Notes: generated from the sequence alone by a model not told the origin. A stretch of 64,000 bases of DNA from an uncultured bacterium (GCA_964497515.1 CAZCCV010000009.1:643-64642), one strand, 5' to 3'. Positions 1 to 5,837 are shown, counted from the stretch's first letter. Numbers and translations are program-made.

Positions 1-1360
1 GAAAACGACAACGTTCGAGTCGACTTCTGATGAAGAGTTCCTGCTGTTTGTCTCGACCGGCAACCAGTGCGCAAGCTCAGAGAAGACCAAGGAGTTCATC
101 GAAGCACGGAAAGCGGTAGCCCTTGAGTGGGAGAAGCGGTATGACAAACCGGAGCTTCAAGCTGCTTACGAAGGAATGTGGCGATCCGTTATCTGGAATA
201 CCATCTACGCTCCTTCGATTAAACGACCAGTGACTGTAGTATCCAGAGACTGGTGCGTCGATGGCAATTATGGAGATTTTGTGCTCTTTGAGTGGGACAC
301 TTTCTTTGCTGCACTTCAGGCAAGTACAGGCAGCAAAGAACTTGCATATAACAACGTCCGCGCAGTACTCTCCGGGATAACCGAGCGAGGTTTCGTTCCG
401 AGCATTTTCTGCGAGCTTGGAAAGAGCAGAGACAGATCTATGCTGCCGGTTGGTTCCATCATCGTTTGGAAGCTGTATGAGAAGTTCCAGGACAAAGAGT
501 TCCTGAAAGAGGTATTTCCTCAGCTCCTCGGTTGGCACAACTGGTGGATGCAGGCGCGCGATGGCAACGGCGATGGACTGCTGGAATGGGGCAGTGACAA
601 CTTCCCATCCCCACACCCACAGTGGCAGGCGTATACACTACAGGCAGCCAGGTACGAATCCGGACTCGACAACAGTCCGATGTACGACGATGTGGTGTTC
701 AACGAAGAGACCTGCACTATGGAGCTTACCGATGTCGGACTGAACTCTGCCTACGCAATGGACGGCTGGGCGCTTGCACAGATTGCTATGGCAATAGGCG
801 ATATGGTGACCGCAGAGACTCTAAGAGCAGAGCACGAAGAGATGAAAGTGCGAATCAACAAAATGCTCTGGAGTGAAGCCGATGGGATCTATCTCAACAG
901 AAGATGGAATGGCGAATTCTACAAACGACTTGCGCCGACTCTGTTCTACCCTATGACAGGCAGAGTTGCTGAACCGGAGCGAGCTGTCAGGATGGTTCGC
1001 GAGCACTTGCTGAACGATACTGAGTTCTGGGGAGAACACGTTGTGCCTAGTATTGCACGAAATGACCCGGCTTACCCAGATCAGGAATACTGGCGCGGTA
1101 GGATTTGGGGTCCGATGAACTGGCTCGTCTACGAAGGGTTGAAGGCATACAGGCTCGATGCTGCTGCAGCGTTGATGGGAGAAAAGTGCCTTAATACCTT
1201 CCTAAGTGAGTGGGTTGAGGAGTCACACGTGCACGAGAACTACAACGGAACTACCGGCGACGGAGACGATGCACGTTATTCGGAGCCTGTTTACTTCTGG
1301 GGTGGACTGCTCGCATTGATAGGACTTCTGGAAAGCCAGGTCGTAAAAGACGACGAGTAG
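1..1360 (+). CDS. Glycoside hydrolase, six-hairpin (GH63/trehalase-like) glucosidase. The 5' end is truncated by the window edge; the frame is open from nt 2.
   Basis: The frame of the track ORF 176-1360 stays open back to the window start. The WGPMNWLVYEGL, EFWGEHVV and WRGRIWG motifs are typical of (alpha/alpha)6 glycosidases. The spurious ORF 77-616 on the minus strand overlaps it. Confidence 0.55.
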   Translation, partial: KTTTFESTSDEEFLLFVSTGNQCASSEKTKEFIEARKAVALEWEKRYDKPELQAAYEGMWRSVIWNTIYAPSIKRPVTVVSRDWCVDGNYGDFVLFEWDTFFAALQASTGSKELAYNNVRAVLSGITERGFVPSIFCELGKSRDRSMLPVGSIIVWKLYEKFQDKEFLKEVFPQLLGWHNWWMQARDGNGDGLLEWGSDNFPSPHPQWQAYTLQAARYESGLDNSPMYDDVVFNEETCTMELTDVGLNSAYAMDGWALAQIAMAIGDMVTAETLRAEHEEMKVRINKMLWSEADGIYLNRRWNGEFYKRLAPTLFYPMTGRVAEPERAVRMVREHLLNDTEFWGEHVVPSIARNDPAYPDQEYWRGRIWGPMNWLVYEGLKAYRLDAAAALMGEKCLNTFLSEWVEESHVHENYNGTTGDGDDARYSEPVYFWGGLLALIGLLESQVVKDDE

Positions 1361-1408: not shown

Positions 1409-2443
1409 CTACATTTTCAACGCTTTTTCGGCAAGTTCGATTGCAGTGACAAATACTTCCTCGGTTTGAGTTAGATCCGTAGTATAGCCTCTCCCCGATG
1501 TCGGTTGGCGCACTACCGCAATTTCCATATCCGCTTCTTTTTTCAGTTCGACAAGCTGTGATTTGAAACGTGCAAGCTTTGCTTCTTTCTTTGCATTCTT
1601 GTCGGCCGCAACACCAGTTTTGAAACCACCCGAGGGTGGCTTCTGGACTATTTCTTTGCATCTGTCGATTAGATAAAAGAGTGGCTTTGCTACCAGAATA
1701 CAGTACGTATATGGAAACTTTTTGGATTCAACGGAATTTAGAGTGGTCTGCACCTGCACACCTATGAAATCCTCATCGGAGTCCCTGAACTTGACGAGGA
1801 GCCTGCAATCCATAGGCACAGCGCCAGATTTCGTATTAGCTAACAACATCGAATAATGAAACTCCAACTGCGGCCAACTATCAGAGAGCCTGTGAATATG
1901 CATAAGCTGATTGATTCGCATGGCCAAATGAGGAGGTTGCCAAGCAACGACTCTTCCGGCAACAATCAACGGTAAAAACAGCGTAAACCCATCGATGATC
2001 AACACTTGCAGTAGCGGAGACTCATCGGGTGAGGTCAACCCAGAGTTCGGATTCAACAATCCGGTCAACAGTCGAAAGATCATCAACCCTACTACTAACA
2101 AAGCAAACAGAAAGAGACATCCACCCAAATTGGCGAGACAAGAGTTTCGAGAAATCCCTTGAGATCGCTTACTCATTTCGAGCGCAGATTCCAGTTCTTC
2201 GTATGTGACCTCACGCCACTCTTCTTTGCTCTTGAGCTTGGGTTTGTTCGATGCGTCTTTGATGCAAAGCAACAGCGCGGCAACTAAAACGAAGACCCAG
2301 CCTACGGCAAAAGACCAATCCAATTCGAAGCCAGAGACTGACTGAATGGTTATCCCAATCACTGCAGAAGCAGCAATTAGAACCATACGCACTTCGACAG
2401 ATAATGTGTTAGCTATAAGAAACTTGGGTTTCATCTCTTTCAA
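1409..2443 (-). CDS. Hypothetical 4-TM membrane protein with a roughly 200-aa cytoplasmic domain. It is the last gene of the rSAM cluster.
   Basis: Long ORF. The N-terminus has hydrophobic helices (VLIAASAVIGITI, VGWVFVLVAALLL, LFLFALLVVGLMIF, LIIDGFTLFLPLIVAG). The start (TTG 2443 or ATG 2434) overlaps or abuts the rSAM stop TGA at 2442-2440, which implies translational coupling. Confidence 0.5.
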   Translation of the reverse strand: MKEMKPKFLIANTLSVEVRMVLIAASAVIGITIQSVSGFELDWSFAVGWVFVLVAALLLCIKDASNKPKLKSKEEWREVTYEELESALEMSKRSQGISRNSCLANLGGCLFLFALLVVGLMIFRLLTGLLNPNSGLTSPDESPLLQVLIIDGFTLFLPLIVAGRVVAWQPPHLAMRINQLMHIHRLSDSWPQLEFHYSMLLANTKSGAVPMDCRLLVKFRDSDEDFIGVQVQTTLNSVESKKFPYTYCILVAKPLFYLIDRCKEIVQKPPSGGFKTGVAADKNAKKEAKLARFKSQLVELKKEADMEIAVVRQPTSGRGYTTDLTQTEEVFVTAIELAEKALKM

Positions 2444-3771
2444 CTGCGTGCTGCAACCGCAACAGCCGATTCAATCTCTTTGTAACCGATAGCATCCCAA
2501 TATATCGGGCAGGCACCAGTGCAGATGTCAAAATGCCGACAGTCGCGACAGATGCGGTGAGCATACCTTTTTCCCCGCCAATAGCGGGACTTTCTGTTAT
2601 TCCAAACGCGCTGGAAGCCATCCTTCAGGATATTACCGACGTTCTTTGACAGACTGGAACACGGCAGAACTCCGCCATCTGGTGCTATCGAGAGAAGCCC
2701 ATCGCAGGCAGCGCACGACTTCCCTCCTAATCCCATAGCAACCGGATTCACAATGCAGTAGGGCGTAGGTGAATACCATAAGAACTCGACATCTGCCTCC
2801 CAAGCAGCTCGCTTCAGTTTATCGAGTAATTCAGGCATCTCAGAGTACAAGACAGTGACTCCTGTGTCCGGAGCCGTCCCGCACGGAATAACCATATTCA
2901 TCGACAGGCGTTTCAGCCCGAGTTCTTTGACAAGTCCGACAATTTCTGCGAGATGAGGCGCATTAATCCGGTTGATAGTAGTGTTGGTATGAACGTGCAA
3001 GCCGGCGTCTTTGAGCAGCGATATTCCGCGCAGGGTTCGATCGTACGAGCCGGGAGTCTGCGTAAGGGAATCGTGTATCTCGGCATTGGCACCTTCCAGA
3101 CTCACCTGTGCACTTCTGAGTCCAGCGTTTTTGAGCTGGTCTACGAGCTCCTGCGTCAGGTTATTGCCGTTAGTGATCAGATTGACTCGCATACCGAGCT
3201 CTGTTGCGTACGCGGTCAGTTCGACCAGGTCGCTTCTCAGCGTCGGTTCCCCACCCGTCCAACTGACACTCGGCACTTCTGCATCGTAACGAATGGCATC
3301 TAGAACCTGTTTCACCTCGGCTGTAGACATTTCACTACTGAAATTTCTGTCGCTTTTGGTGCAAGTGCACCCCGCGTAGCAGAACTTACAGCTAAGGTTG
3401 CAGCGATATGTGAGCGCGATTTCAGAAAGCACCGGCAGCGAGTTGTGCGGACGTGTAAATGATGTCTCTTCCACTGCTCGACGCCCTTTTCCTTCGCCCA
3501 AGCAGCCCATCACAAGAGCGCGAAGATCGCAGAAGAAGTGAAAAACGTCGGTAAGCACCTTTTCGTCTTTGGATAGTCCCTCAGACTTTTGCTCTAATAC
3601 ATCGATCAGCGAAGAACCGGCCATCATACGCCCGAGTATTGCAAGGCCAGCGGGATTCAGCTTGTACGCCTGGTTAGGAAGCAGTATCAGCAAGCTATCC
3701 CGCTCCCGGACGTATACGTATTCCGAGATGCTTTTCACAAAATCATCAGCCCAAGATACATCCACACTCAC
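2440..3771 (-). CDS. Radical SAM/SPASM-domain maturase with an N-terminal PqqD-like RiPP-recognition element (RRE).
   Basis: CNLSCKFCYAG (CxxxCxxC). The SPASM auxiliary-cluster cysteines are CAACDGLL...LPCSS and CRDCRHFDICTGACP. The N-terminal region YKLNPAGLAILGRMMAGSSLIDVLEQ is PqqD/RRE-like. The proposed start is GTG 3771-3769, which shares its G with the TAG stop of the upstream gene (cTAGTG) and has GGAGG 9 nt upstream. The track ORF start at 3909 (GTG inside the repeat) is rejected. Confidence 0.8.
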   Translation of the reverse strand: MSVDVSWADDFVKSISEYVYVRERDSLLILLPNQAYKLNPAGLAILGRMMAGSSLIDVLEQKSEGLSKDEKVLTDVFHFFCDLRALVMGCLGEGKGRRAVEETSFTRPHNSLPVLSEIALTYRCNLSCKFCYAGCTCTKSDRNFSSEMSTAEVKQVLDAIRYDAEVPSVSWTGGEPTLRSDLVELTAYATELGMRVNLITNGNNLTQELVDQLKNAGLRSAQVSLEGANAEIHDSLTQTPGSYDRTLRGISLLKDAGLHVHTNTTINRINAPHLAEIVGLVKELGLKRLSMNMVIPCGTAPDTGVTVLYSEMPELLDKLKRAAWEADVEFLWYSPTPYCIVNPVAMGLGGKSCAACDGLLSIAPDGGVLPCSSLSKNVGNILKDGFQRVWNNRKSRYWRGKRYAHRICRDCRHFDICTGACPIYWDAIGYKEIESAVAVAARS

Positions 3772-5438
3772 TAGTGCGCACCTCCGCTCACACACGCACT
3801 GTGGCAAGCTGAATGACAGGCGCTGTGGCACGCCGAATGACACGCACTGTGGCAAGCTGAATGACAAGCATCGTGGCAAGCAGTGTGAACGTAACAGGCT
3901 GAGTGACACGCATCCGAATGAATAAACGCTGAGTAACTTAGGCCAGCGCCAAAAGCGCGCTCTCCAATAGCTTTACTGATTTCGCTCGCCCTGCCCTTGC
4001 CCTCATTAGTGAATTCTCGGTACAAATGATACGCATAGAACCTGGAATAACTGTTGCCCCAAGACGTATAAGTATCATCCAAAGAACCACCGCGTTCGAC
4101 AGCTTCGAATTGTTCCTTGATCTGTTTCTTGTAGTATTCCTTTGTGGCTTCGAGATCGCAATCCCAAGCCTTAGCCTGTACTCTGTCGGTCATCTCGCGG
4201 AAGATATCCTTGATTGTGCTATCATCCAGCAAGCCTTCGTTGTGGATGGCGTTTAGCAGCATATTCTCGTACAAGCTTTCTGCAGAGATTCCAGGAGGAT
4301 AGAGTCTTTCGACCCGTATTGGATCAAGTGAAAGAACCTTTACCAAACCTCGCCTCTCCAGACTCGCGATAATCGTACCTACGATCTTGGACAGGGAAAT
4401 ATCCAGCAGAAGAGCCGCCTCAATTGGATCGAGTTCGGCAACCTTCCCTTGCTGACGGAAGCTGGAGACTTTTATGAGCGGCGGCACCCAGTCTGCATTC
4501 TCCCATCGCACTTCATCGAGTCGACTTGCAGCCTTTGAATACGTGTTCAGTTTGCGTGAGAACAGAATAAGCACGCCTACGACTACACTGAAAACAGCCA
4601 CTGCACCCGGCAAGCCCAACGGTTTGGCAGGAGTCTCAGGCATCATCGGAGCGACTGGATCAATTGGAAGATAGGGTGCATCCGGCGGCAATGTCTGTTG
4701 CTGCCCACCCTCCCCTGAAGGTGCGTCAGTTTTCAGAGTAAAATACTTCGCGTCAATATAGCACTGCAGATTGAACTTATACTGCGGAGGAACAGCATCT
4801 TTGTGGAACCGAACAGTCATATAGTAAGCGTTTTGGCTCGGCTGCCCGTAGTAGCTGATGAGGTATTCGCGGTTGACGAACTTCTCTGTCTTAAAGCCTG
4901 TCTTGTTCAGTAAGGCTTCATCGACTACTTCGCTTGCTGTTTTGATGGGATAGTGAAGATAGAGGGTATAGTGTCCTGCTGCTTGGTCGAACTGGCACGG
5001 CGCCCAATTGAGATATGCGAGCTTCCCGTCTGGCGCATCGGTGTAGCCAAGCATTCCGGCTGCCGCCAAATCTGTGCCGTAAAGGATAACGTACGTAACC
5101 TCTCCTCTTGAAACCGCAGCACCGTTCGCTAGCACAATATCGAATTGGTTGCCCAAATCAGTGATGGAGAGCTTATACTTGCGCCCACTAGAATCGACGG
5201 CATACGATTCGTCGTAGCCGAAATGTGGATATGCTCCGCTAAAACCCTGCAAGTAGAAGCCGTGAAGATCGCCGCTAAGCACTTTGTAACGGACTTTGTA
5301 GACAATTGTCGCCTTACCGTCGACGTGCGGCGATATGTCGACCTCGACCCACTTGAGTTCTACCGAGGTCGCCCAAACTGAAACACAGGAGAGCAGCAAC
5401 AAGCTGCTCAAAATCAGCACACGACGCAAGACAGACAC
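3771..5438 (-). CDS. Membrane protein with a signal peptide, a roughly 280-aa exported domain, one TM helix, a roughly 230-aa cytoplasmic domain and a C-terminal Cys/His-rich (ACHS)n repeat tail. It is the putative rSAM substrate.
   Basis: GTG start (VSVLRRVLILSSLLLLSCVSVWA resembles a signal peptide). The TM segment is LPGAVAVFSVVVGVLILF. The 47-aa tail contains 11 Cys and 10 His with period 4. The stop is TAG 3773-3771. The topology resembles DUF2207-type proteins, which I cannot verify from sequence alone. Confidence 0.7.
   Translation of the reverse strand: MSVLRRVLILSSLLLLSCVSVWATSVELKWVEVDISPHVDGKATIVYKVRYKVLSGDLHGFYLQGFSGAYPHFGYDESYAVDSSGRKYKLSITDLGNQFDIVLANGAAVSRGEVTYVILYGTDLAAAGMLGYTDAPDGKLAYLNWAPCQFDQAAGHYTLYLHYPIKTASEVVDEALLNKTGFKTEKFVNREYLISYYGQPSQNAYYMTVRFHKDAVPPQYKFNLQCYIDAKYFTLKTDAPSGEGGQQQTLPPDAPYLPIDPVAPMMPETPAKPLGLPGAVAVFSVVVGVLILFSRKLNTYSKAASRLDEVRWENADWVPPLIKVSSFRQQGKVAELDPIEAALLLDISLSKIVGTIIASLERRGLVKVLSLDPIRVERLYPPGISAESLYENMLLNAIHNEGLLDDSTIKDIFREMTDRVQAKAWDCDLEATKEYYKKQIKEQFEAVERGGSLDDTYTSWGNSYSRFYAYHLYREFTNEGKGRASEISKAIGERAFGAGLSYSAFIHSDACHSACYVHTACHDACHSACHSACHSACHSACHSACHSACVSGGAH
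3774..3914 (-). repeat. Tandem coding repeat, about 24 nt at DNA level and 12 nt (4 codons) at protein level, encoding (A-C-H-S)n.
   Basis: The plus strand reads cactgtggcaagctgaatgaca(g/a)g / cgctgtggcacgccgaatgacac / gcactgtggcaagctgaatgacaag / catcgtggcaagcagtgtgaacg. The minus-strand frame reads ...DACHSACYVHTACHDACHSACHSACHSACHSACHSACHSACVSGGAH. Codons alternate TGT/TGC, CAT/CAC, TCA/AGT and GCT/GCG. Confidence 0.85.
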
Positions 5439-5447
5439 AATTAGCTT

Positions 5448-5837
5448 TTATTCCCTCGAGGACTCTGTTCTAGCTCGCAGAAGATCAGCCTGAGCAGAGA
5501 TATACTGTGCAAAATCGCTTTTTGACTGAGACCACTCGGATTCACCAGGGAATGTTGAGACTACTCCCTGCCAGATAATCTGGTAGGTACGTTCCAGGCA
5601 CGGTCGAGAGTCTCCCTTTCCAGTGAACTCAAAAGTGGCTTCGATGTTTGTCGGCCGAAACACAGGCGTCGGGCCGGAGACTATCTCCGTTGCTACTCCG
5701 AGAAAAACAACGCCTAATTCTTCCACAACATCGAGGTGCTCTCTGATAGCGCGGACGACGGACGCAACAGAAAAGTCCGCAGAAGAGAAACGCATTGTAA
5801 GCAAAGAGCCATTTATGTCTCCATAAGGCATCTGCAT
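5448..5837 (-). CDS. Hypothetical protein (129 aa). It is the first gene of the rSAM cluster.
   Basis: ATG start preceded by AGGAGG with an 8-nt spacer (reverse complement of 5838-5860). It ends 10 nt before the GTG start of the 555-aa gene. No recognisable motif. Confidence 0.5.
   Translation of the reverse strand: MQMPYGDINGSLLTMRFSSADFSVASVVRAIREHLDVVEELGVVFLGVATEIVSGPTPVFRPTNIEATFEFTGKGDSRPCLERTYQIIWQGVVSTFPGESEWSQSKSDFAQYISAQADLLRARTESSRE

Follow-up and report, generated by a model that had tools for sequence, protein, structure and literature searches.

In a stretch of 64,000 nucleotides (nt) from an uncultured bacterium (GCA_964497515.1 CAZCCV010000009.1:643-64642; the whole stretch is called the window below), three adjacent genes on the minus strand encode a type-I membrane protein of 555 amino acids (aa) with a Cys- and His-rich C-terminal tail, a radical S-adenosylmethionine (rSAM) enzyme with a SPASM domain, and a membrane protein of 344 aa with four transmembrane (TM) helices. 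The enzyme has an N-terminal domain that resembles the recognition element (RRE) of enzymes maturing ribosomally synthesized peptides with post-translational modifications (RiPPs). The three genes form a conserved trio, and we believe that the substrate of the enzyme is probably the tail of the full-length membrane protein and not a small peptide. To our knowledge, RRE-dependent rSAM/SPASM enzymes are known almost only from small secreted peptides and a few cofactors. Here, the same machinery is tied to a full-size membrane protein, namely to its cytoplasmic tail, in a cassette that occurs in at least 12 phyla.

Linkage of the genes and conservation of the tail

The genes of the locus are as follows:
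5448..5837, minus strand: gene of a 129-aa protein; open reading frame (ORF) with AGGAGG 8 nt 5' of its ATG
3771..5438, minus strand: gene of the 555-aa type-I membrane protein, the proposed substrate; assigned by ORF, domains and topology
2440..3771, minus strand: gene of the RRE-rSAM-SPASM enzyme, 443 aa; translationally coupled to the 555-aa gene
1409..2443, minus strand: gene of the 344-aa (or 341-aa) 4-TM membrane protein, the third core component; ORF

ORF calling placed these genes in the order 129-aa protein, 555-aa protein, rSAM enzyme and 344-aa protein, all in the same direction. The first base of the GTG start codon of the rSAM gene doubles as the final G of the TAG that stops the 555-aa gene, and GGAGG lies just upstream. 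This start had been read in the same way in the initial annotation, and the four tightly packed genes and the 1-nt overlap that it described were found again. Where it gave a 10-nt gap, the 129-aa and 555-aa genes are in fact 9 nt apart, and its 4-nt overlap before the 344-aa gene is obtained only when the TTG at 2443 is taken as the start. The start of the 344-aa gene is ambiguous, and the ATG at 2434, which was picked by the Logan gene caller, leaves a 5-nt gap. A Logan contig (run SRR8925753) was 100% identical over 4,038 nt and gave the same 129/555/443-aa gene calls; it was assembled separately, but the run may share reads with the source of the window. The longest ORF of the rSAM gene (489 aa, from GTG 3909) reads the tail repeat at 3771-3909 (minus strand) out of frame, as LSFSLPQCVSFGVPQRLSFSLPQCV, before the true start.

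The family was followed in 146 loci, about 85 of them distinct at 75% identity and belonging to about 13 named lineages, which were found via motifs of the ectodomain and not via the tail. Two locus sets were used, 62 species-representative genomes and 80 metagenome loci kept from 333 matches. The genomes belong to Armatimonadota, Planctomycetota (including Candidatus Kuenenia stuttgartiensis), Omnitrophota, Elusimicrobia, Acidobacteriota, Aminicenantes, WOR-3, Nitrospiraceae, Hydrogenedentota, Spirochaetes, Firestonebacteria and Fischerbacteria, together with one Clostridia metagenome-assembled genome (MAG). The initial annotation had proposed the pairing of tail and rSAM-SPASM gene from the window, and both were kept in orthologues. 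Among the 111 loci in which the membrane protein was complete and at least 1.8 kb of downstream sequence was available, 110 had the rSAM gene as the next gene downstream, in the same orientation. A homologue of the 344-aa protein came next after the rSAM gene in 86 of the 88 loci with at least 3.2 kb downstream. Clustering of the ORFs showed universal linkage only for the membrane protein, the rSAM enzyme and the 344-aa gene, and the divergence of the membrane protein correlated with that of the enzyme (Spearman 0.65). A separate small precursor has no room in the 1-nt overlap of the window, and the median gap between the membrane-protein and rSAM genes across loci was 17 nt.

The tail of the membrane protein contains the following element:
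3774..3878, minus strand: period-4 core and C-terminus of the 555-aa protein (aa 521-555), (ACH[D/S])x7-ACVSGGAH; conservation 0.94

The 47-residue tail holds 10 Cys and 10 His. The tail sequence and the His count of the initial annotation were right, and its 11 Cys are corrected to 10. The spacings between Cys are 4, 6 and then 4 seven times; the strict period of 4 that had been claimed for the whole tail is therefore limited to the last 8 Cys (residues 521-549). Three consecutive Ala-Cys-His-x (ACHx) units were found as 5 overlapping occurrences in the 64-kb window, in the tail only, and shuffled sequences are expected to give 0. The DNA repeat is imperfect (period 24, 83% match) and synonymous codons are mixed in it, which indicates that the tail is not a product of slippage or assembly.

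The tail is the best-conserved part of the membrane protein. The mean frequency of the top residue was 0.94 in the tail, 0.56 in the ectodomain, 0.54 in the pre-tail motif and 0.28 in the linker, and it ranged from 0.28 to 0.59 outside the tail. The Ala, Cys and His columns were invariant across 57 diverse orthologues, and the whole membrane proteins are about 40% identical to that of the window, with identity outside the tail falling to 35-40%. In the group ending in ACVSGGxH, the last 32 codons of 74 distinct tail DNAs were 95% identical in protein, and the codons for conserved tail residues were identical in only 42%. In all, 124 different DNA sequences encode the same protein tail, and about 140 loci carry it in the reading frame of the membrane protein. 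A frameshift, about which the initial annotation had been cautious, is not the source of the tail, and the codon pattern indicates, at the level of sequence, that the tail is under strong purifying selection. The period-4 Cys count was 8 or 9 in 138 of 143 loci. C-terminally complete orthologues end in (ACH[S/D/G/N])n-ACVSGG[A/S]H or -ACVSSGH, with variant endings only in L061, L107 and L125. The one exception to the tail rule was L002, which is truncated and diverges after residue ~340.

A word-index protein search with the 555-aa protein, with or without its tail, gave 5 relatives, and all three that reach the C-terminus keep the tail. Because the family is nearly absent from this collection, DNA-level locus searches and exhaustive HMMER were used. 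The near-absence may be one reason why the family has been overlooked. The 5.8 billion protein clusters of this collection did not contain the 555-aa protein of the window, and they yielded hundreds of orthologues of the rSAM enzyme, one of them a 100% match. Exhaustive HMMER with a tail-less query (residues 1-508) against 1.84 billion representatives returned only 326 relatives. Most full-length matches to this query bear ACHx tails, and more distant members have 2-12 units. Of the apparently tail-less relatives, P0267 and P0212 are truncated where their contigs end, P0141 ends 20 nt away from such an end, and P0142 may be genuinely tail-less or misassembled.

Several single observations were made on the tails and loci of distant members. 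P0255 has ACHx units followed by CDSS/CHSS units and ends in ...CVSDV. P0137 and P0155 have only 2-3 units, and in P0248 (843 aa) the ectodomain is duplicated. The database proteins P0147, P0159 and P0230 end in a wrong frame of the repeat (LPQRL/LGLPQ type), so frameshift errors or mis-annotation seem to arise easily at the repeat in assemblies. In L149 (1784-3595), a distant member with 30% identity, a Radical_SAM gene with a weak PqqD match (1-902, minus strand) lies upstream and divergent, with two small unknown ORFs in between; since this gene is divergent, gene order is not fixed in remote branches. The ACHx DNA pattern was also met in viral contigs, and these 7 matches were rejected as short stop-to-stop ORFs of simple tandem repeats, unrelated to the family. 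Three of the loci, L153-L155 (IMG/VR), appear to be 12-nt DNA repeats without start codon context or a linked rSAM gene.

Domains of the membrane protein, the enzyme and the partner proteins

The following domains and motifs were assigned, partly with AlphaFold2 (AF2) models and their predicted local distance difference test (pLDDT) scores:
4734..5363, minus strand: exported β-sandwich ectodomain of the 555-aa protein, aa 26-235; AF2 pLDDT 70-88, Foldseek
4563..4619, minus strand: TM helix of the 555-aa protein, aa 274-292; Kyte-Doolittle 2.51, AF2 helix 277-309
3939..4562, minus strand: cytoplasmic domain of the 555-aa protein, aa 293-500; conservation profile, invariant columns, low-confidence AF2
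3879..3938, minus strand: pre-tail motif of the 555-aa protein, aa 501-520; conservation 0.54 after the 0.28 linker; candidate RRE recognition sequence
3457..3771, minus strand: N-terminal RRE-like (PqqD-like) domain of the enzyme, aa 1 to ~105; AF2, Foldseek, weak PqqD
3379..3402, minus strand: CX3CX2C rSAM motif of the enzyme, C124 N L S C128 K F C131; invariant in 43 orthologues
2509..2757, minus strand: SPASM domain of the enzyme, aa 339-421; Pfam, with C339, C353, C356-x9-G-x4-C371 and C408-x2-C411-x5-C417-x3-C421

Hydropathy and charge confirmed the layout that had been described for the 555-aa protein, namely a signal peptide, an ectodomain, one TM helix and a cytoplasmic domain. A signal-peptide-like segment lies at aa 7-25 and the single strong TM segment at aa 274-292. 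The helix is followed by 6 Lys/Arg, against 2 Lys/Arg and 6 Asp/Glu before it, and because of this enrichment of Lys/Arg after the helix the C-terminal 260 residues and the tail are placed in the cytoplasm. By the same analysis, the tail, the rSAM enzyme, the C-terminal domain of the 344-aa protein and the 129-aa protein all share the cytoplasmic compartment, so the topology assumed in the initial annotation was kept.

The Foldseek matches of the ectodomain fold were Ost1/ribophorin I and M1 aminopeptidases, the latter in their N-terminal domain. The N-terminal Pfam profile of DUF2207 (PF09972) matched 17 of 57 orthologues at E<=0.01, and the window protein had no match at E<=10; the P0001 orthologue reached 24.1 bits, where the gathering score is 24.4. 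In the cytoplasmic domain, a juxtamembrane motif (W..DWxPPxIxVSSFRxxGK) is conserved in the family and is followed by a helix-helix-hairpin module (338-378), a WDCDLEATKxYY motif and then a variable linker (451-500). Pfam and the PDB gave no relative of this domain. The AF2 model of the 555-aa protein was made from a 6-sequence alignment with a mean pLDDT of 59, and because of this shallow alignment and low score the cytoplasmic domain and the tail are readable only as secondary structure. In the pre-tail motif, F505 and C511 are more than 90% conserved, and this motif may be the ligand of the RRE.

The enzyme scored above threshold with Pfam Radical_SAM (PF04055; 103.8 bits, cutoff 29.5) and SPASM (PF13186; 39 bits, cutoff 21.5). 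The CNLSCKFC motif and the SPASM Cys clusters had been reported before; the motif and eight SPASM Cys (C339, C353, C356, C371, C408, C411, C417 and C421) are invariant among the 43 orthologues. C135 and C137 are nearly invariant straight after the CX3CX2C motif (window 3361-3378, aa 132-137, CNLSCKFCYAGCTCT), as is C90 in the linker between the RRE and the rSAM core. These extra Cys (C90, C135 and C137) are unusual among SPASM maturases and might provide a further metal site or serve as catalytic thiols.

The AF2 model of the enzyme, based on the 43-orthologue alignment, had a pLDDT of 90.4. Its first ~90 residues form three β-strands and then three helices (β19-22, β27-30, β34-37, α40-50, α55-62 and α70-87). 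SkfB and SuiB took the top Foldseek ranks, and the SuiB alignment was full-length (452 columns, TM-score 0.66) and included the SuiB-precursor peptide complex. By sequence, the nearest solved relatives are the peptide-modifying SPASM enzymes PqqE, SkfB and CteB, and the RRE-bearing SkfB, CteB and SuiB have their rSAM core at an identical offset. The PqqD profile (PF05402) gave weak matches in 26 of the 43 orthologues, with a best E-value of 2.2e-4. The RRE assignment was accepted at the fold level because of the AF2 topology, the Foldseek ranks, the core offset and these weak orthologue matches. The PqqD-like RRE of the initial annotation is supported by the AF2 fold, the SuiB/SkfB alignment and the weak PqqD matches of orthologues; the window protein itself gave no match to the PqqD profile. 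None of the 92 NCBIfam matches of the enzyme reached its family cutoff; PqqE, for example, scored 121 bits against 381.

Both other proteins had been suggested as accessory or export partners, which applies differently to the two. The 344-aa protein is core. TM and charge analysis gave it four TM helices with both termini inside and a C-terminal cytoplasmic domain of ~180 residues, and its invariant residues include R19, W76, G163, P210, Q230, Q232, N236, P244, Y245, Y247, R312, Y320 and T322. No relative was found in Pfam, NCBIfam or the PDB, even with a profile. A homologue of the 129-aa protein lay directly upstream of the membrane-protein gene in only 32 of 146 loci, in Armatimonadota, WOR-3, Acidobacteriota, Kuenenia, Fischerbacteria and Aminicenantes. 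These homologues are 47-75% identical and have no conserved Cys, and hydropathy and charge mark the protein as soluble and cytoplasmic; it has no Pfam, NCBIfam or PDB match. The 129-aa protein is a lineage-restricted accessory and not a core component. Profile-profile comparison showed no relation of the 129-aa protein to the rSAM enzyme or its RRE, or of the 344-aa protein to the 555-aa protein.

Two variants of the 344-aa protein were seen. In L025 (10976-12896), from a Candidatus Fischerbacteria MAG, the rSAM gene is followed by two paralogues in tandem, 326 and 317 aa long. P0224 (L152, 124-1746; 540 aa) joins a membrane-protein homologue in its first ~400 residues to a 344-aa-like C-terminal domain, with the C-terminal stretch ...VGVQFQMAINNG...PYVYAVF...STGYRTD.... 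It was seen once, on a 1.9-kb contig, and could be a natural fusion/deletion or a chimeric assembly.

In L030 (12292-14446) and about 23 other Elusimicrobia-type loci (clusters 13 and 20), genes of a full-length NifU (NifU_N + BFD + NifU) and of the cysteine desulfurase NifS follow the 344-aa homologue on the same strand. The upstream place of the 129-aa gene is taken in these loci by two others, for an ACT-domain protein and a 187-aa membrane protein. The NifU/NifS neighbours could hint at Fe-S supply or could be just phylum-specific synteny.

The neighbours of the cassette in the window are housekeeping genes (MalK-type ATPase, Mfd, NuoCD, class II ribonucleotide reductase, RF3, TolC/AcrB and RecN). 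This gene content is that of an ordinary chromosome of a diderm bacterium with TolC/AcrB efflux, and the nearest loci are Armatimonadota MAGs. No tRNA genes and no Rfam families at the gathering threshold were found in the whole 64-kb window, and a scan for promoters and terminators gave signals no better than in shuffles.

Proposed mechanism and competing explanations

In the proposed mechanism, insertion of the 555-aa protein would leave the ribophorin-like domain outside the cell and the C-terminal half within it. The RRE would dock on the pre-tail motif (aa 501-520), which is set off by the variable linker from the folded cytoplasmic domain; we consider that this arrangement mirrors the leader/core junction of RiPP precursors. 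The 8-10 Cys in the (ACHx)n tail would then be modified processively by the rSAM core and two SPASM clusters. The likely products would be Cys-derived thioethers (sactionine/ranthionine-type) or other radical crosslinks, one per 4-residue unit. By analogy, thioether crosslinks seem most likely, since SPASM enzymes act in this way on Cys-rich repeats (PapB, and similarly SkfB and CteB). C-C or Cys-His links might also be made, because the relatives include PqqE and SuiB and the top scores of the hidden Markov models (HMMs) are AhbD/NirJ. An attempt to name the crosslink acceptor from the Cys-to-His spacing was dropped, as no register (i+1, i-3 or i+5) fits all units of both tail variants.

The product would remain attached, giving the membrane protein a rigid rod of fixed length that is lined with His and probably binds metal. 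Retention and not release is suggested by the fixed length and invariant Ala/Cys/His register, by the housekeeping neighbours and by the lack of a linked protease or exporter. The cytoplasmic domain of the 4-TM protein would be the likely partner or reader of the modified tail. Overall, so strong a constraint on the tail points to an exact role in structure or chemistry, for example as a crosslinked rod that binds metal or as a cofactor derived from the protein. Tentatively, we think it possible, though not likely, that the matured tail is a membrane-anchored protein-derived cofactor, in which a ladder of fixed length, with 8-10 Cys crosslinks installed by radical chemistry, would carry a row of His, with any remaining thiolates, that binds a chain of metal ions or clusters, and which would form, with the ectodomain and the 4-TM protein, a new transmembrane device for sensing or for electron or metal transfer. 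If so, this would be the first time that a large integral membrane protein has an RRE-dependent RiPP-type maturase of its own, and the device would count as housekeeping in many phyla that are mostly uncultured, among them Armatimonadota, Planctomycetota (anammox included), Omnitrophota and Elusimicrobia. The system also raises the question of which rSAM chemistry takes place on (ACHx)n and why it is needed at the membrane.

Some results weigh against the tail as substrate or against thioethers as its product. The tail was modelled at low confidence by AF2. In L055 (913-4346), the only informative locus of this kind, a tailed protein has no rSAM gene within 8 kb downstream; a homocysteine S-methyltransferase/MTHFR fusion and type IV pilus genes lie there instead, and only 912 nt of upstream sequence are present. 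The SPASM domain is without the usual last downstream Cys and has two invariant upstream Cys (C339 and C353) instead, and the rSAM enzyme of the window itself has no Pfam PqqD match at E<=1. The top NCBIfam scores of the enzyme are the tetrapyrrole-modifying AhbD/NirJ (164 and 140 bits, cutoff 500) and not thioether synthases, and the nearest solved relatives include the C-C bond formers PqqE and SuiB. The crosslink chemistry itself is a guess by analogy.

The tail may instead be an unmodified Cys/His tail that binds metal or Fe-S clusters, with the rSAM enzyme acting elsewhere or using the tail as a donor of clusters or electrons. Equal numbers of Cys and His (10/10) are typical of metal-binding tails, the small-molecule enzymes AhbD and NirJ are the best NCBIfam scores, and the Elusimicrobia cassette is followed by NifU and NifS. 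This synteny is limited to one phylum, however, and an RRE-type peptide-binding domain, a near-absolute linkage and translational coupling count against it. Plain chelation would also not need the invariant Ala and register, and we regard this explanation as unlikely. A more distant possibility is a classical RiPP with an outsized leader, whose tail is modified, cleaved and released or exported, perhaps by the 4-TM protein. An RRE, rSAM and SPASM together with a Cys-rich C-terminal core follow RiPP logic, and the variable linker and conserved pre-core motif are like a leader/core junction. But the cassette has no conserved protease or ABC exporter, the 4-TM protein is without a transporter signature, and the core is near-invariant across phyla, where RiPP cores usually vary. 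The ectodomain and cytoplasmic domain are themselves conserved and the window neighbours are housekeeping, which makes this rival quite improbable.

CX3CH is a variant of the heme c motif, and ACHSACH can be read as repeated CX3CH. The C-x3-C-H units could thus be thioether attachment sites for heme or another tetrapyrrole with His as the axial ligand, and an AhbD/NirJ-like rSAM enzyme would install or tailor the cofactor; the top NCBIfam matches are indeed the tetrapyrrole enzymes AhbD, NirJ2, NirJ and AhbC. However, c-type heme attachment is periplasmic and the tail is cytoplasmic. The likeness to AhbD is that of a generic rSAM core (164 bits versus 500), AhbD and NirJ are without an RRE, and no tetrapyrrole genes are linked, so we give this explanation very little credence. 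The least credible is an artefact by frameshift, misassembled tandem repeat or chance low-complexity run. The repeat does occur in a wrong frame in P0147, P0159 and P0230 and in the 489-aa rSAM ORF. But the one protein tail is encoded by 124 different DNAs and is in frame at about 140 loci, shuffles give 0 matches, and the separately assembled SRR8925753 contig is identical (possibly from the same reads). The in-frame tails and codon divergence refute an artefact origin. Taken together, we still favor the tail of the membrane protein as the probable substrate of the enzyme.

Comparison with known systems

None of the four proteins has a specific NCBIfam or Pfam family model. Sequence and profile searches of Pfam, NCBIfam, PADLOC and the PDB gave nothing usable for the 555-, 344- and 129-aa proteins, and no paper on the tail sequence, a DUF2207-rSAM link or these family accessions was found in the full-text literature searched. 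The only family match of the tail was TIGR04117/PF27846, 'Cys-Xaa-Xaa-Xaa repeat radical SAM target protein' (Syntroph_Cxxx), a bioinformatically defined and uncharacterised family; the Pfam match was faint. With TIGR04117 (cutoff 50 bits), the tail scored 16.0, the whole protein 10.7 and orthologues 10.6-15.5. Both families have a C-terminal period-4 Cys repeat in a protein encoded beside an rSAM/SPASM enzyme. Unlike the TIGR04117 proteins of ~98 aa, the carrier here has 555 aa (486-583 aa in complete orthologues) with a signal peptide, an ectodomain and a TM helix, and the invariant A-C-H-x unit, the fixed ACVSGGAH end and the conserved 4-TM partner are also different. The model TIGR04115, which we take to be the dedicated Cxxx-repeat maturase family, was not among the best 25 of the 92 NCBIfam matches of the enzyme, and its score is therefore below 78.8 bits.

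The ACGX and HxsA systems had been cited in the initial annotation as related cases and serve as analogies only, as both maturase cutoffs were missed widely. The ACGX system (TIGR04340, with TIGR04341 presumably part of the same ACGX-repeat peptide/rSAM_ACGX system) likewise pairs an Ala-Cys-x-x period-4 repeat with an rSAM/SPASM enzyme. Its substrates, however, are peptides and not membrane proteins, the window enzyme scored 106.2 bits against the ACGX maturase cutoff of 400, and the ACGX peptide model did not match the tail at E<=10. HxsC4 gave 102.3 bits against 500, and the repeat here reads C-H-S-A, not H-x-S as in HxsA/HxsBC.

SuiB, SkfB and CteB share the three-domain layout of the window enzyme, with the rSAM core at the same offset after an RRE of ~105 aa. 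They differ in sequence (16-24% identity), and their substrates are small leader-core peptides. Their chemistries differ as well: a Lys-Trp C-C bond for SuiB, a Cys-Met sactionine for SkfB, and for CteB the thioethers of SCIFF (six cysteines in forty-five residues) peptides. A precedent for action on a repeat is the rSAM/SPASM enzyme PapB, which makes one thioether per repeated CX3D motif along the repetitive C-terminal core of PapA (PMC9413430, PMC10739248). Unlike the 555-aa protein, PapA is a small secreted RiPP precursor (of the ranthipeptide freyrasin) with Asp acceptors, and in the ACHx tail the residue at i+4 is Cys and not Asp/Glu. The window enzyme scored 82.7 bits with the PapB model NF047865, for which the cutoff is 340. 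The likeness to AhbD/NirJ spans the rSAM core only, and the window enzyme has the extra N-terminal RRE.

The 555-aa protein has the build of DUF2207 proteins and of ribophorin I/Ost1, with a signal peptide, a β-sandwich ectodomain, one TM helix and a cytoplasmic C-terminal part, but its similarity to DUF2207 is only borderline; no description of a Cys/His tail or an rSAM link for DUF2207 was found in the literature searched. For the enzyme, protein substrates have precedents. The SPASM enzymes anSME and QhpD (substrate QhpC) work in the cytoplasm, and the protein whose Cys they modify retains the modification for its function. anSME was also among the Foldseek neighbours of the rSAM enzyme, with marginal sequence similarity (E=9.5e-4). 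It differs in having no RRE and in making one formylglycine per substrate, and QhpC is a small soluble subunit. Since such protein-substrate enzymes exist, the principle is not categorically new. What looks new compared with these systems is that an RRE-type maturase is devoted to the tail of a large integral membrane protein, together with a conserved membrane partner, and that this occurs across a broad range of phyla. The system would add integral membrane proteins to the substrates of RiPP-type recognition, and it may account for part of the 'orphan' rSAM/SPASM enzymes that have no obvious precursor peptide.

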